In this document: positions 3,056 to 64,000 of the stretch, piece by piece
Numbering within the stretch: the stretch's first letter is position 1
How the letters are laid out: each line of letters starts with the position of its first letter
Assembly (NCBI RefSeq): GCF_045037415.1
Contig: NZ_CP173438.1
DNA: 64,000 nt
Reading direction: 5' to 3' (one strand)
Source of the DNA: Escherichia coli
Lineage (GTDB): Bacteria; Pseudomonadota; Gammaproteobacteria; Enterobacterales; Enterobacteriaceae
Notes under the pieces: generated by a model
The model's input: the letters and a program-made list of their open reading frames with translations, nothing else
What the model was told of the DNA's origin: nothing
The model's database searches: none
Translations under genes and position numbers: made by a program

Positions 3056-3333
3056 ATGATAATGAATTTCAGACACAAGGGATTGCGTGACTTGTTTCTT
3101 CTCGGCAAAACCTCCGGCGTTATACCGACGCAAGTCAAACGATTACGCCACCACTCGCTGTGATTGATGCAGCATGCTGTCTTGCTGATATCGATATGCC
3201 CGGTTACCGACTACATCCGTTAAGCGGCGATCGCGATGGAATTTGGGCGATATCTGTCTCGGGCAACTGGCGAATCACATTTGAATTCGTCAATGGCGAT
3301 GCATACATACTGGATTACGAGGACTATCACTGA
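3056..3333 (+). pseudogene. HigB-like (RelE/ParE superfamily) toxin gene disrupted by a frameshift near 3158-3163
   Basis: Frame A 3056..3163 = MIMNFRHKGLRDLFLLGKTSGVIPTQVKRLRHHSL*; frame B 3160..3333 = [57 protein letters not shown]; stop overlaps the yddM ATG (tgATG); pattern matches plasmid-maintenance-killer HigB family as recalled. Confidence 0.6.
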
Positions 3334-3617
3334 TGAAAATGGCCAATCATCCCCGCCCGGGGGACATTATTCAGGAATCACTGGACGAACTTAATGTCAG
3401 CCTGCGCGAGTTTGCCAGAGCAATGGAAATTGCGCCCTCAACGGCAAGCCGATTGCTGACCGGAAAAGCAGCTTTGACGCCAGAAATGGCAATAAAACTT
3501 TCCGTGGTGATCGGCAGTTCGCCGCAAATGTGGCTGAATCTGCAAAATGCCTGGAGTCTGGCAGAGGCGGAAAAAACGGTGGATGTGTCGCGACTGCGCC
3601 GTCTGGTTACGCAATAA
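3333..3617 (+). CDS. yddM: HigA-like XRE-family HTH antitoxin / putative transcriptional regulator (94 aa)
   Basis: ORF 3333..3617; HTH motif [26 protein letters not shown]; positioned immediately 3' of the HigB-like frames. Confidence 0.88.
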
Positions 3618-20507: not shown

Positions 20508-21644
20508 TTACGAAAGCCCGCTCCCCGCAAGGACTGACGCGAGATAGTTTCTGTCCATGGCTGCTTTTCGCATCTTACGTCTTAACCCTGCCTTGAATAC
20601 CTTATCATTCGTTAAAATATTAATAGCGATGTGCCGTATCCCTGAAAATAATTCTGCGGCGTTTCCTCTTCTTATTTTGCAGTCGTCTTCATTCATTACC
20701 ACGTCCAGACGCCAGTGCAGCTTATTCTCCACGTGCCAGTGGTTTCGGATTGCTGTGGCGAACTTCTCTGCGGTTAAATCAGCAGAACTGATATAATATC
20801 TGACCGTCATTTCTGGCTCTTTCTTTTGTTCTGCTATTATGGACCGAAAGGAGACTGCCACGCATAATTTCTTCAGTCCTTTCCATTCGAACGTGAAATC
20901 AATAAGTTCATCAGGGACATCGCAAACAATATGAAGACGGATTTCTTCTCTGCCGTGACTCTTTTCACTAATGGCGTAACTGTCATGTTCTGGATTATTT
21001 AATTCTTTCAGTGGAAATTTTTCCTCAAAGGCTTTATTAAGCCGCCCCTGATTTCCTTTTACAGCGAATAAATAATCACCGCCCTGTTTTTGTATCTTCT
21101 CTGCAATATCTTTCTGGCAACCCATCGCATCAGTTGTGATGATTTTTCCTTTAATATCCAGCATGTTAAGAAGTTCAGGGATAGGTGTAATTTCATTGGA
21201 TTTCTCATCCGTCCTGATCTGTCCGATGACCAGACTGTGCATTGTTGAGAACGCACTAATGACATGAATCGCTCCCTTGCGGCGACTCTTGTCATAAGAA
21301 TGCCGGAGTGTTTTTCCATCAATTGCGATGACGTCTTTATCATCTGAAGAATGGCAGTCACGCATCCAGTTAATAAAGCACTCGTGAAATTTTGCAGGAC
21401 TGATACAGGATACAACTCTGGCAATGGTATCGTGAACAGGAATACCATTATCAAAATCACCATATTGCTTCAAAAAATCGAGATGTGTTTCCCCAAAATC
21501 CTCTATATCTTCCCAGCCTTCTGCACCCGAAATAACGGCACAAATAGTCAACAGTAGAATATCCGATAATTTATGTTCCACTTTCCAGGCTTGTCTGTAA
21601 TCGGGGATAATAGAAATATGTTCCATCAATTTTTTAAGTTCCAT
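20508..21644 (-). mobile_element. H-repeat-associated protein / ISAs1-family transposase gene (378 aa), AT-rich; element ends not defined
   Basis: ORF 20508..21644; [52 protein letters not shown]... recognised as the YdcC/YhhI/YbfD H-rpt protein family. Confidence 0.82.
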
Positions 21645-27515: not shown

Positions 27516-27747
27516 GGCTGTATTGCTGGCACAACATAGCAACGTTTTTTTGCATAGTGAGGTTTTCGACAGCCAGAGCAACTGCCATTAACTCCAGTTC
27601 GTAGCGGATCCGATTGATTTCATTTAATTGACGTTTTCCCACTTCCGGAACTGTAAATGCTTGCGCTGGTGCGACAAAGAGCGCATTTACCGAAACCAGA
27701 CGTAAGGAACCGGCGCGCCATGCGGACGCGAGGACAGAACCCAACAT
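27511..27747 (-). pseudogene. Short ORF (78 aa), possible remnant of a transcriptional regulator (mcbR-like) gene
   Basis: ORF 27511..27747 with in-frame stop two codons upstream of its start; lies where K-12 (from memory) has curA and mcbR between yncA and yncD; assignment is inference. Confidence 0.3.
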
Positions 27748-27953
27748 CGGTTACGCTGCGTTTGTTGCCCCATAATGCTCTCCTGTGCTTTTGGCATGAA
27801 TCCATCAATAGTAGCAGGCTCACAGGATTGGTTTTGTTTGCAGCCGTCACATCCCCTCTGCAACACGCAATAATTTCATAGAGGAATCCGTTGCTTCGGG
27901 CTGTTTTCGATAGTATTGATAACATCATCATCATTATTTTATCGAGGCCAGAC

Positions 27954-36876: not shown

Positions 36877-37116
<240 letters not shown>

Positions 37117-50498: not shown

Positions 50499-51020
50499 TC
50501 ACACCGTAGCAAAACTAACTGGTTCACCCGCTCCTCGTGGTTCTGCCGACACAGAATGTTTGTTCAGACGGAATACGTCCACCGCCTCAGTTAGTCGTGC
50601 CGCCTGTTCTTCAAGGGACACCGCCGCCGTTGAGGCCTCTTCTACCAGAGAAGCATTCTGTTGCGTCACCTTATCCATTTCAGAAATCGCCTGGCTAACC
50701 TGCGTTATGCCTCGACTTTGTTCACCCGAGGCGGTGGCGATTTCCTGCATGATATGTGTGACACTCGCGACGGCATCAACAATAGTGCACATGGTTTTCC
50801 CTGCCGTTGCCACCTCATCCGATCCCAGGTCAATTAACCTGACTGATTCACTGATCAAGCCTTCAATCTCTTTCGCCGCCTGGGCGCTGCGGCTTGCGAG
50901 TGTCCGTACTTCGCTGGCGACAACGGCAAATCCACGGCCTTGCGAGAGTAACGAATGATTAAACTGGCTAAACCGAATGACGAAAAATTCTGGAAAGCAG
51001 CACGCGATTTCGTCAGGTGA
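50499..51020 (-). pseudogene. 5'-truncated methyl-accepting chemotaxis protein (trg-like) remnant: C-terminal signalling domain only
   Basis: In-frame translation ...[34 protein letters not shown]...VSFATV*; MCP homology starts near 50942; upstream in-frame segment (to stop at 51021..51023) is unrelated and has no ATG/GTG/TTG; no TM, periplasmic or HAMP region. Confidence 0.6.
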
Positions 51021-51099
51021 TTATTTTCGTCCCTAAGGAAACCACATAGGATGCTCACGGGTGCCTGAGACTTTCTGTTTTCAGGCTAACCTGGAATCA

Positions 51100-51145
51100 G
51101 AAAGACGAAGGCCCCGACCGATATTTCTATCAACCGAGGCCAACG

Positions 51146-51175
<30 letters not shown>
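51100..51175 (-). ncRNA. sokB: Expected position of the SokB antisense RNA (approximate)
   Basis: Placement by analogy with hok/sok loci where the antisense RNA overlaps the mok translation-initiation region; exact ends not determinable from sequence. Confidence 0.3.
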
Positions 51176-51354
<179 letters not shown>

Positions 51355-51769: not shown

Positions 51770-51833
51770 CTTCCGATGTAGGCCCGTATTCTTCGCCTGT
51801 ACCACGGGTCGGTTTTAGTACAGGCGTTTTCTT
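51770..51833 (+). ncRNA. rydC: RydC small regulatory RNA
   Basis: cttccgatgtaggcccgtattcttcgcctgtaccacgggtcggttttagtacaggcgttttctt matches the RydC sequence as recalled; terminal hairpin cgcctgtac/gtacaggcg plus U tract; sits between ydcA and cybB. Confidence 0.7.
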
Positions 51834-52374: not shown

Positions 52375-52562
52375 AACATTTCCTGCTTTAACATAATTTG
52401 CCGTTAACATAACGGGCTTTTCTTAAAATTTCATTAAATATTGTTCACCCGTTTTCAGTACGTTACGTTTCACTGCAAGAATGTAGATTGCCCATCCCGC
52501 CATCCTGGTCTAAGCCTGGAAAGGATCAATTTTCATCCGAACGTTCCTGACAGGAGAAGACC

Positions 52563-53564
52563 ATGAGTAAAGTTGGTATTAATGGTTTTGGTCGTATCGG
52601 TCGACTGGTGTTGCGTCGATTACTTGAAGTCAAAAGCAACATAGACGTTGTCGCTATTAATGATCTCACTTCCCCAAAAATTCTCGCCTACCTGCTGAAA
52701 CATGATTCAAACTACGGACCGTTCCCCTGGAGCGTTGATTATACGGAAGATTCACTTATCGTTGATGGGAAAAGTATCGCGGTTTACGCCGAAAAAGAGG
52801 CTAAAAATATTCCGTGGAAAGCGAAAGGCGCAGAAATCATTGTCGAATGTACAGGCTTTTATACCTCCGCCGAGAAATCGCAGGCGCATCTTGATGCTGG
52901 CGCGAAGAAGGTGTTGATTTCCGCCCCTGCCGGTGAAATGAAAACCATCGTTTATAACGTCAATGACGACACTCTGGATGGCAACGACACCATTGTTTCC
53001 GTGGCGTCATGCACCACTAACTGCCTTGCGCCGATGGCCAAAGCCTTGCATGACAGTTTCGGGATAGAAGTCGGCACGATGACGACCATTCATGCCTATA
53101 CCGGCACCCAGTCACTGGTGGATGGCCCGCGTGGTAAAGATTTACGTGCTTCACGCGCAGCGGCAGAAAATATCATTCCCCACACTACGGGGGCGGCAAA
53201 AGCCATTGGCCTGGTGATCCCGGAACTGAGCGGCAAACTGAAAGGTCATGCGCAACGCGTGCCGGTGAAAACAGGTTCGGTCACTGAACTGGTGTCGATT
53301 CTCGGAAAAAAAGTGACTGCCGAAGAGGTGAACAACGCGCTTAAAAAGGCGACAAACAATAACGAGTCATTTGGTTATACCGATGAAGAAATAGTCTCTT
53401 CCGATATCATTGGCAGCCATTTCGGTTCGGTGTTTGATGCCACGCAAACGGAAATTACCGCCGTGGGCGATTTACAACTGGTGAAAACGGTCGCCTGGTA
53501 CGATAACGAATATGGCTTCGTCACGCAGCTTATTCGCACCCTCGAAAAATTCGCTAAACTCTGA
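52563..53564 (+). CDS. gapC: Glyceraldehyde-3-phosphate dehydrogenase paralog, intact (333 aa)
   Basis: ORF 52563..53564 uninterrupted; NAD-binding [10 protein letters not shown] and catalytic [10 protein letters not shown]. Confidence 0.88.
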
Positions 53565-53571
53565 CGCGCAC

Positions 53572-53595
53572 AGGCGGAGGAAAAAACCTCCGCCT
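53572..53595. terminator. Hairpin between convergent gapC and aldA
   Basis: stem aggcggagg/cctccgcct with aaaaaa loop, followed by ctttc. Confidence 0.5.
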
Positions 53596-53605
53596 CTTTC
53601 ACTCA

Positions 53606-55045
53606 CTACGACTGTAAATAAACCACCTGGGTCTGCAGATATTCATGCAAGCCATGTTTACCATCTGCGCCGCCAATACCGGATTTACGCCATCCAGCGT
53701 GGAAGCCTTGCATAGCTTCGAAGTTTTCACGGTTGATGTAAGTTTCACCAAACTTCAGCCCTTTAATGGCTTTCATCGCGACGTTCAGATTTTGGGTATA
53801 GATTGATGAGGTCAGGCCGTAATCACTGTCATTAGCCATTGAGATAGCCTCTTCCAGCGTGTCAAATGCGACCACCGGCAGAACCGGACCAAAGGTTTCC
53901 TCATGCATAATCGACATTTCCTGGCGAACATCCAGCAGCAATGTCGGCGGATAATAATATCCTTTCCCCTCTACCGCTTTGCCACCCAACGCCACTCTCG
54001 CCCCTTCTTCTACTGCGCGCGCCACTTTTTGCTCAACCCTTTCCAGCGCCGCGGCGTTAATCAACGGTCCCATCGCAATGTCGTTGCGTTCAGCAGGGTT
54101 ACCAAATTGAACCGCCTGCATCGCTTCACCCAGCCGATTGACGAACTGATCATAAATGCTTTTCTGTACATAAACACGTTCTGCACAGTTACACACTTGC
54201 CCACTATTAATGACGCGTGAATCAACGATGGCTTTGACTGCCAGTTCAATATCGGCATCGTCCATTACGATAGCCGGTGCTTTACCCCCCAATTCCAGGC
54301 ACACTTTGGTGATGTTTTTCGCCGCAGTCGCCATAATCTTTTCACCTGCAGAGACGCTGCCTGTCATACTGACCATTGCAACCTTTGGGTTACCCGCCAG
54401 TTCTTGCCCAACGTTTTCACCACGCCCGAGTACAAGGTTAAACACGCCGCGCGGAAGGCCTATTTCATCAACGATTTTGGCGAATGCAATCGCATTGTTT
54501 GGCGTAAATTCACTGGGTTTAATGACGATGGTATTACCGGTCAAAAGAGCGGGAGCCATTTTGCGGGCAATGAGGAAGAACGGAAAGTTCCACGGCAGAA
54601 TGCCGGTAGTCACGCCAAGCGCACGTTTAAACAGAAGGATATTTTCTCCTGGACGATCGCTTTGAATAATCTCGCCCTCGTAACGCCGTGCCCACTCCGC
54701 CATATAATCGATATAGTCCGCAGTAAAAGCCACTTCGACTTCAGCCAACTGCTGGATCTTGCCCCCTTCTTCGACAATCAGCGCACTGATTTCACTGGCA
54801 CGTTCCCGGATCCCGGCGGAGATTTTGCGCAACCAACTGGCGCGTTCAATAGCAGGCAACGCTTCCCATTCTGGTTGTGCACGTTCTGCTGCATCGATTG
54901 CCTTACGGGCATCCTCGGCCTGACCATCGGGAATGCGGGAAATGACAGCCTCTGTAGCAGGGTTAACCACATCAATCCATGCGTCTCCACGCCAGGTAAC
55001 AAACTGTCCATCGATATACATAGGATGTTGAACGGGTACTGACAT
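53606..55045 (-). CDS. aldA: Lactaldehyde/aldehyde dehydrogenase A (479 aa)
   Basis: ORF 53606..55045; ALDH motifs (ELGGKAP, GQVCNCAER). Confidence 0.92.
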   Translation of the reverse strand: MSVPVQHPMYIDGQFVTWRGDAWIDVVNPATEAVISRIPDGQAEDARKAIDAAERAQPEWEALPAIERASWLRKISAGIRERASEISALIVEEGGKIQQLAEVEVAFTADYIDYMAEWARRYEGEIIQSDRPGENILLFKRALGVTTGILPWNFPFFLIARKMAPALLTGNTIVIKPSEFTPNNAIAFAKIVDEIGLPRGVFNLVLGRGENVGQELAGNPKVAMVSMTGSVSAGEKIMATAAKNITKVCLELGGKAPAIVMDDADIELAVKAIVDSRVINSGQVCNCAERVYVQKSIYDQFVNRLGEAMQAVQFGNPAERNDIAMGPLINAAALERVEQKVARAVEEGARVALGGKAVEGKGYYYPPTLLLDVRQEMSIMHEETFGPVLPVVAFDTLEEAISMANDSDYGLTSSIYTQNLNVAMKAIKGLKFGETYINRENFEAMQGFHAGWRKSGIGGADGKHGLHEYLQTQVVYLQS

Positions 55046-62161: not shown

Positions 62162-64000
62162 TTAGAACGTTTTCTTGAAGTTTAGCATCACACCTTTATC
62201 ACTGATGCCGTCTTCTTTCCAGTGGAATGCATCTACCTGCAACGCACTTTCCTGGCTGCTGTATTTCACACCCATTGTCGCCAGGCTGTTGAAACCACCA
62301 CCATTCTGACCATCATCAATGTTGAAACGCTGGCTTCCCGCGCCCGAAACGCTCGCAGTTCGCTGGCTTTTCACATAGCTCAGGTTCGGGCCGCCTTCCA
62401 GCGTGGCGTTCGCACTCCAGCCGTCCTTACCGGCATAGTCCAGTTTCAGCCCAACAATGCTGTCCACTGCCGTTTCGCTACCGCTGTTCATGCTCAGGTT
62501 AAAGTCACCCGCATTGCGTTCCTGATAGCCACCCTCCAGTGTGTGACGCAGTTTAACCCCGGCATATGGCGTGACGTTCAGCCCTTCACGCAGCTCAAAG
62601 GTTTTCGCCCCTTCACTACGGAACTCCAGGTACTGTTGTTTCACATTAGCATCGGCTGTTTTATTGATATCGCCGTACGCTACCGAGCGGCTGCTGTCGA
62701 GCTGGTGCACATCATAACGCAGGGCGTTATTCCAGTTCATACCGTTGTCAAAGGCCATCTGGTGTTTCAGACCGAAGAACTGGCTGTAACCGCCTGTCAC
62801 TCCGTTATCGCCTGCGGTATCTGAACCATTACCCTCCAGACGCGCAATCCCGTATTCCAGACTCAGGTTCTGATGTTCAGTCAGCGTCAGAGATTTACGC
62901 AGCGCCATCATGTCGTACTGTGTGTCGTTACCCAGTTCAGCACGCGGGTCGCCTTTCGCTACCACGTTGAAGGCCAGACCGTTTGCGACTTCCGGTGCTG
63001 CATCGGACAACATGCTGAAGCGGTTACTTAACACTCGTGCTTCATTGAATACCGTTGTTGCCTGGCTGCCGCTGACCTGTTTCAGCGCACTGTTCAGTTC
63101 CGCCGTGGTGCCTACGTTCAGGCTGCTGTACAACTCGTTGTTGGTATAGCCCGCATCCAGTACCTGCGCGACGGTGTTAACAGATGAATCTGTTGCTACA
63201 TCGGTGTAGGCATTTTTAGTCATCGTGACATCAACGTTGCCGCTGGCGTCAGTAGTGCCTTGCGCGTTCCATACCACAGAGGTCGATGTAATCGTCTCTG
63301 CGTCGGTCAGATTACTGCCCTGAACGACGTTGTCGAAGGTCACGGAGGTGGAGCTGGTTCCAGCCGTAAATCCGGTGTTAACAGAAACCCCTTTCAGGCT
63401 TGCATTGTTCACTTTCAGCTTGCCGGCACTGCCGTCAGAACTGGTTCCTACAACATAACCATTCAGTTTGTTCTGGCTTCCGTCACTGGACGGGGTGCTG
63501 GCCGCAACAGAAACCGACGAGCCAGGTACATCAGGCAAAGTGTAATCAGCATAATGCACTTCGCTATTGTTACCGTTATTGCCGTTCACACCTTCAATGT
63601 TAACGCTGTCACCTTGCTTGATTAGCCCGGAACCTGTCACTCCATCGGCAATAGTCACTGTGCCGTTGTTCACGAGGTGGCCTACGGAACCCAACATGCT
63701 AAATGCAAAGGAGTTGTTGGCGTAAATGTTGATGGCGCCATTGTTCTCAATGACCGCATCAGCTGTCGTGCCGCTGTCCAGTTGCATCCCGATCATGCCC
63801 GTGTCGGTCGTGCCCGACGTTCCGAGGTTGATCGTGCCGTTGTTAACCAGTCGTGCGTTTTTATCCCCTTCCATCGCAATAGCGTTATTACCGCTAATAT
63901 TCATGGTGCCGTCATTCTGCGCAACGTAATTGCTGTGAATGAATTTCACTGCAACGCCGCTGTCTTTATCAAAATTGACGACCCCATTGCTCTGGTTCCA
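62162..64000 (-). CDS. ydbA: Autotransporter-type outer membrane protein (YdbA-like), C-terminal part; 5' end lies beyond the window
   Basis: ORF 62162..63949 stays open in frame to 64000; Gly/Thr/Asn-rich passenger repeats and C-terminal beta-domain ending ...LNFKKTF. Confidence 0.75.
   Translation of the reverse strand, partial: WNQSNGVVNFDKDSGVAVKFIHSNYVAQNDGTMNISGNNAIAMEGDKNARLVNNGTINLGTSGTTDTGMIGMQLDSGTTADAVIENNGAINIYANNSFAFSMLGSVGHLVNNGTVTIADGVTGSGLIKQGDSVNIEGVNGNNGNNSEVHYADYTLPDVPGSSVSVAASTPSSDGSQNKLNGYVVGTSSDGSAGKLKVNNASLKGVSVNTGFTAGTSSTSVTFDNVVQGSNLTDAETITSTSVVWNAQGTTDASGNVDVTMTKNAYTDVATDSSVNTVAQVLDAGYTNNELYSSLNVGTTAELNSALKQVSGSQATTVFNEARVLSNRFSMLSDAAPEVANGLAFNVVAKGDPRAELGNDTQYDMMALRKSLTLTEHQNLSLEYGIARLEGNGSDTAGDNGVTGGYSQFFGLKHQMAFDNGMNWNNALRYDVHQLDSSRSVAYGDINKTADANVKQQYLEFRSEGAKTFELREGLNVTPYAGVKLRHTLEGGYQERNAGDFNLSMNSGSETAVDSIVGLKLDYAGKDGWSANATLEGGPNLSYVKSQRTASVSGAGSQRFNIDDGQNGGGFNSLATMGVKYSSQESALQVDAFHWKEDGISDKGVMLNFKKTF

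Follow-up and report, generated by a model that had tools for sequence, protein, structure and literature searches.

The main glycolytic glyceraldehyde-3-phosphate dehydrogenase (GAPDH) of Escherichia coli is GapA, and a related protein of the species, GapC, is known from crystal structures under the name EcGAPDH1; the source paper of these structures is reportedly that of Zhang et al. (2020, Acta Cryst F). A 99%-identical GapC enzyme turns over glyceraldehyde-3-phosphate (G3P) with NAD+, has a KM of 0.73 mM for G3P and has been crystallised with G3P, NAD and the thioacyl intermediate; its activity is abolished in the C150A mutant and falls about 8,000-fold in the H177A mutant (PMC8615399). 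The NAD+ contacts of R11, I12, D34, S120 and K78 in the solved structure are described in the same paper (PMC8615399). [quoted passage not shown] A passage of PMC1796617 that cites the same 1998 work speaks of an adaptive role of gapC in aquatic survival. In K-12, the reference annotation of MG1655 (NC_000913.3) lists gapC (b4493) as a 1001-bp pseudogene. The existence of an intact gapC outside K-12 has been known since 1998 and is fully covered by literature, structures and RefSeq annotation (WP_000048688.1).

The window, that is, the whole stretch of E. coli DNA that was analysed (64,000 nucleotides), contains this gene in the order cybB (- strand), gapC (+ strand), aldA (- strand), then ydcF and hrpA, as assigned via the annotation of strain SK1144. 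The order cybB-gapC-aldA-ydcF is common to the window, MG1655 and ATCC 98082, and gapC is convergent with aldA. We read the locus as an intact gapC allele that is predicted to encode a working NAD-dependent, phosphorylating type I GAPDH, a second isoenzyme beside GapA (probability of about 0.93). The features of the locus, in window positions, are the following.

52375-52562, no strand: divergent intergenic region between cybB and gapC, 188 bp, the presumed promoter region, placed by position
52552-52556, + strand: Shine-Dalgarno sequence AGGAG, 6 nt 5' of the gapC ATG, read from the sequence
52563-53564, + strand: gapC coding sequence, ATG to TGA, 333 codons plus TGA, from the ORF listing and the sequence
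52677-52679, + strand: codon 39, AAA (Lys) in the window and TAA in K-12 (A115T), from the alignment
53010-53012, + strand: TGC codon of the catalytic Cys150, inside SCTTNC, from the sequence and the alignment
53091-53093, + strand: CAT codon of the catalytic His177, from the sequence and the alignment
53306-53312, + strand: A7 homopolymer, gene nucleotides 744-750, A6 in K-12 and there a frameshift, from the alignment
53572-53595, no strand: 9-bp GC-rich hairpin AGGCGGAGG-AAAAAA-CCTCCGCCT, in the spacer between the stop codons of the convergent genes gapC and aldA

An earlier note on this DNA had described gapC as an uninterrupted ORF of 333 codons with its NAD-binding and catalytic-cysteine motifs intact. 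The coordinates proved to be exact, from ATG to TGA, and no catalytic residue is missing in the alignment with GapA. The product has a two-domain architecture, with an N-terminal NAD-binding Rossmann domain (Gp_dh_N, PF00044, residues 3-102, E-value 6.7e-36) and a C-terminal catalytic domain (Gp_dh_C, PF02800, residues 155-313, E-value 3.5e-58), both scoring far above the Pfam cutoffs. With the curated equivalog model of type I GAPDH (TIGR01534; EC 1.2.1.12) it scores 447.7 bits, above the cutoff of 367.2, over 330 of 330 model positions, and it stays under the cutoff of the GapA-type model NF011954/PRK15425 (300.8 bits, cutoff 662). The GxGxxG motif of NAD binding and Asp34 are present, and C150 and H177 are the same in GapA and in the aligned orthologues. 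All of the NAD+-contact residues are retained (R11, I12, D34, K78 and S120), as are those of the substrate and inorganic phosphate sites (T180, T182 and R232; S149, T151, T209 and G210; R198) and N315. By the standard GAPDH mechanism, Cys150 would attack glyceraldehyde-3-phosphate with the assistance of His177, a hydride would be transferred to NAD+, and the thioacyl intermediate would be cleaved by phosphate to give 1,3-bisphosphoglycerate.

The same searches bear on whether GapC could be functional in a non-glycolytic role, either as an erythrose-4-phosphate dehydrogenase (Epd-like) or as the GAPDH partner of ArsJ. The product does match the two Epd models (NF010058, 281.2 bits; TIGR01532, 277.8 bits) and the model of the ArsJ-associated GAPDH (NF033735, 306.2 bits), but each of these scores is far under its cutoff (539, 530.55 and 450, respectively), whereas the cutoff of TIGR01534 is passed. 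In addition, there is no arsJ adjacent to gapC, whose neighbours are cybB and aldA, and the 99%-identical enzyme uses G3P and NAD+ (PMC8615399). Such a role is very improbable.

The gapC DNA is 100% identical to genes of SK1144 and other strains that are annotated as an intact type I glyceraldehyde-3-phosphate dehydrogenase (WP_000048688.1), and the same 1002-bp sequence is found in the independently sequenced complete genomes of SK1144, AVS0155, AH21C062 and Esc12. The stretch at 52563-53564 is a genuine conserved gene and no chance ORF. An artefact of assembly or reading, for example a homopolymer miscall that masks a frameshift, could also make a gene appear intact, and the K-12 frameshift does fall within a homopolymer (A7/A6), where sequencing errors are typical. 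However, the four genomes that share the identical 1002 bp were sequenced independently, and each of the 12 further intact alleles that we analysed is likewise 1002 bp long, with the A run in frame, which leaves an artefact as the most far-fetched of the explanations that we weighed.

The 64-kb window is collinear with the genome of E. coli SK1144, a diffusely adherent strain (NZ_AP018784.2, 2494320-2558319), with 7 differing bases out of 64,000, while the identity to K-12 is about 96.8% over the 6.3 kb around gapC. Given these values, the source of the window is a near-clone of SK1144 and not K-12, in agreement with the non-K-12 background that the earlier note had proposed. The intact gapC is the majority state in the species (see below) and therefore gives, alone, little information on which non-K-12 background is present.

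Several other features of the window were recorded. The ribose/galactose chemoreceptor gene trg (50499-50944) is truncated to a 444-bp 3' remnant, annotated as a pseudogene in SK1144; a 1,333-bp stretch of K-12 is absent at 50943/50944, which spans roughly the first 1.2 kb of trg at its 5' end and the 137 bp that precede the gene. The Rfam scan gave no family in or adjoining gapC and just two hits upstream, past cybB, both intact: the sok antitoxin RNA of the hokB locus (51059-51210, 108 bits) and the small RNA RydC (51770-51833, 90.5 bits). A gene of a RelE/ParE-family toxin (3056-3617) is annotated as frameshifted and adjoins yddM, an intact gene of a HigA-family antitoxin (SK1144 annotation), and a transposase gene of ISEc1, of the ISAs1 family ('ydcC', 20508-21644), lies between yddH and ansP. 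By annotation, a fragment of a GntR-family regulator (27550-27773) is without both ends; a hicB antitoxin gene (36877-37113) is without its N-terminus, and no hicA is annotated. The GntR and hicB remnants point to small deletions in comparison with other strains. At the end of the window, a BigA/YdbA autotransporter gene (from 62162 to 64000, past the window end) is one intact 8.6-kb coding sequence in the near-identical SK1144. In K-12, ydbA is presumably interrupted by an IS element, which would make it a second gene of the window that is broken in K-12 and whole here.

Over the 1002 bp of gapC, a base-by-base alignment of K-12 b4493 with the window gives 21 substitutions and one deletion. 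The earlier note had stated that gapC is interrupted in K-12, and this was accurate: the pseudogene annotation of b4493 and the alignment agree, with Lys39 replaced by a TAA stop and one base deleted from the A7 run. The K-12-type allele of ATCC 98082 is labelled 'frameshifted; internal stop' in RefSeq. Among the intact alleles sampled, the nearest to that of K-12 is the one of the O121 strain RM8352, which differs by four substitutions and the frameshift; with the frameshift repaired, R18G and the K39 stop are among the four. Because so few changes separate the two, the loss of gapC in K-12 is recent.

We then asked how these states are distributed in 5,426 complete E. coli genomes. gapC DNA was detected in 5,417 of them, with a single match over at least 80% of the gene in 5,409. 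By allele-specific queries, the K39 stop (TAA) allele is found in 1,155 genomes (21%), the A6 frameshift allele in 1,049 (19%), and at least 3,879 (71%) have codon 39 intact within an identical context; the shares of intact and broken genes rest on these codon-39 and A6 counts. Overall, most genomes, about three in four, have an intact gene. Among those with the stop are K-12 laboratory derivatives, but also strains isolated from humans, pigs, chickens, a migratory bird and beach water. The earlier note had tied the broken gene to K-12; K-12 is indeed broken, but the lesion is not specific to it, since about 21% of complete genomes have the same stop. We also inspected 20 loci, a sample biased by the deliberate choice of matches with a 1001-bp span, of which 13 are intact (including O157:H7, O26, O121, clinical, animal and wastewater isolates) and seven are pseudogenes. 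Five gapC matches fall on records labelled as plasmids, which may be large plasmids or F-primes with a chromosomal segment, or else replicons with a wrong label.

The stop is likely to have preceded the frameshift, because it is found in more genomes (1,155 against 1,049) and because one sampled genome, WP8-S18-CRE-02, has the K39 stop without the A-run frameshift. Allele counts and this one genome suggest that the K39 stop came first and the slip in the A7 run second. In our reading, gapC is a long-standing chromosomal resident of the Enterobacteriaceae that purifying selection keeps in most E. coli; the lineage containing K-12 inactivated it recently, probably by the Lys39 stop and then by the A7-run slip, and the SK1144-like lineage of the window never gained either lesion.

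Lesions of gapC outside the K-12 lineage are rare. In AR_0058, a run of G5 has slipped to G4, a state found in one genome by a query that is informative solely in the band of at least 99% identity. LF82 (NC_011993.1, 1456480-1456531) has the allele of the window minus 57 bp in frame (I129-V147), just N-terminal of the catalytic motif; this deletion is unique among the 5,426 genomes, and the gene is annotated as a normal coding sequence, not as a pseudogene. In SCPM-O-B-7615 (NZ_CP144926.1, 3001-5178), IS1A replaces the 3' 80% of gapC together with the 3' end of aldA, an IS1-associated deletion that inactivates both convergent genes.

Orthologues of GapC with 87-97% identity are found in Escherichia albertii (97%), Citrobacter (90%) and Klebsiella, Yokenella, Enterobacter and Trabulsiella (87-89%); Kluyvera and Scandinavium also have orthologues within the 87-97% range. 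The GC content of gapC is 48.9% (GC3 51.8%), matching its neighbours, and the mean of the window is 50.7%. GC content and the spread of orthologues give no sign of a recent horizontal gain of gapC within E. coli. A lateral acquisition of the gene (PMC1796617) is likewise unsupported, given its native-like GC content and the widespread orthologues in the Enterobacteriaceae.

Among the 13 intact alleles, dS averages 0.114 and dN 0.0040, for a dN/dS of 0.035, and 69 polymorphic codons are synonymous-only as opposed to nine with an amino-acid change. These substitution patterns point to strong purifying selection on the intact alleles. Neutral drift is untenable for them, because dN/dS is about 0.035 over a dS of about 0.11. 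The entry PDB 7C5F and about 13 related entries hold a protein with 330 of 333 residues identical to the GapC of the window, and the three differing positions (60, 262 and 265) are naturally variable among alleles and orthologues and lie apart from the named catalytic and ligand-binding residues. The suggestion that the intact gene may be functional, also made in the earlier note, gains support from the low dN/dS and from the published activity and structures of this 330/333-identical protein. We infer that the exact allele of the window (Y60, K262 and N265) would be expressed and active.

The intergenic region upstream of gapC has a mean column identity of about 98% in five E. coli lineages, including K-12, and the AGGAG is invariant in all five. 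A scan of the gapC upstream region for the sigma-70 consensus gave one weak site where chance alone would yield 1.8, and no promoter was assigned. In K-12, a sigma-S ChIP-seq peak has been reported at gapC_1/cybB (PMC4447067), and an array study gives a 5.6-fold change of gapC_1 in what is, by the layout of the table, apparently the column comparing wild type with an rpoS mutant (PMC4512719).

These observations are relevant to the possibility that the ORF is intact yet silent, that is, cryptic, unexpressed or unneeded and merely awaiting a disabling mutation. The lack of a strong sigma-70 promoter would fit a silent gene, as would the repeated loss of gapC without obvious harm (the K39 stop in 21% of genomes and the singleton lesions of AR_0058, LF82 and SCPM-O-B-7615) and the fact that GapA already serves as the main glycolytic enzyme. 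However, the dN/dS of the intact alleles is incompatible with neutral drift, the upstream region and the Shine-Dalgarno sequence are conserved, the sigma-S peak is found upstream of the gene even in K-12 (PMC4447067), the array change is apparently rpoS-dependent (PMC4512719), and a passage of PMC2949598 describes activation of the promoter in specific environments. A silent gene is improbable in the face of this evidence, and we retain the reading of gapC as a working second GAPDH.

Downstream of gapC, the RNA fold of 53560-53612 has a free energy of -18.4 kcal/mol (z = -4.55), and none of 200 shuffled sequences is as stable. A pattern scan for terminators did not call the hairpin at 53572-53595, because its T-tail is weak. 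From the fold, we infer that this hairpin is probably a terminator shared by gapC and aldA.

The older literature implies that laboratory domestication lies behind the loss of gapC. About one in five sequenced E. coli, of many natural origins, have the K-12-type pseudogene, which is therefore a natural trait of a lineage and no laboratory artefact. This frequency is a modest quantitative addition to what was known. Tentatively, and with reservations that outweigh our confidence, gapC could be seen as a marker of lifestyle as well as lineage: one ancestral stop at Lys39, with a later frameshift, would define a clade of about 21% of genomes that includes K-12, and elsewhere the gene would be a sigma-S-controlled second GAPDH that strong purifying selection keeps for survival outside the host, in cold or fresh water. 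The loss in the K-12 clade would then reflect selection relaxed or changed by niche and not laboratory domestication. For metabolic models of SK1144-like strains, the result means the addition of a second GAPDH, probably induced by stress or environment, that is absent from models based on K-12. Its importance otherwise lies mainly in correct annotation and in the confirmation of a non-K-12, SK1144-like source.

Compared with the known systems, the GapC of the window is closest to EcGAPDH1 (7C5F, 7C5H, 7C5P, 7C7K and mutants), which belongs to the same gene family and type of locus and has the same catalytic Cys150 and His177 and the same NAD and phosphate sites; relative to 7C5F, the window has Y60 in place of F, K262 in place of Q and N265 in place of T, and all other residues are the same. 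The enterobacterial orthologues are full-length proteins of 332-333 amino acids with the same domains, set apart by divergence at the species level. GapA (b1779) shares the fold, the two Pfam domains, the motif SCTTNCLAP and the reaction with GapC, but is only 46% identical to it and is encoded at a separate locus. Finally, K-12 b4493 (formerly gapC_1, b1417, and gapC_2, b1416) occupies the orthologous locus, likewise flanked by cybB and aldA, and is 97.8% identical to the gene of the window at the nucleotide level, but has the TAA stop at K39, the A7 to A6 frameshift and R18G, all three of which are absent from the window.
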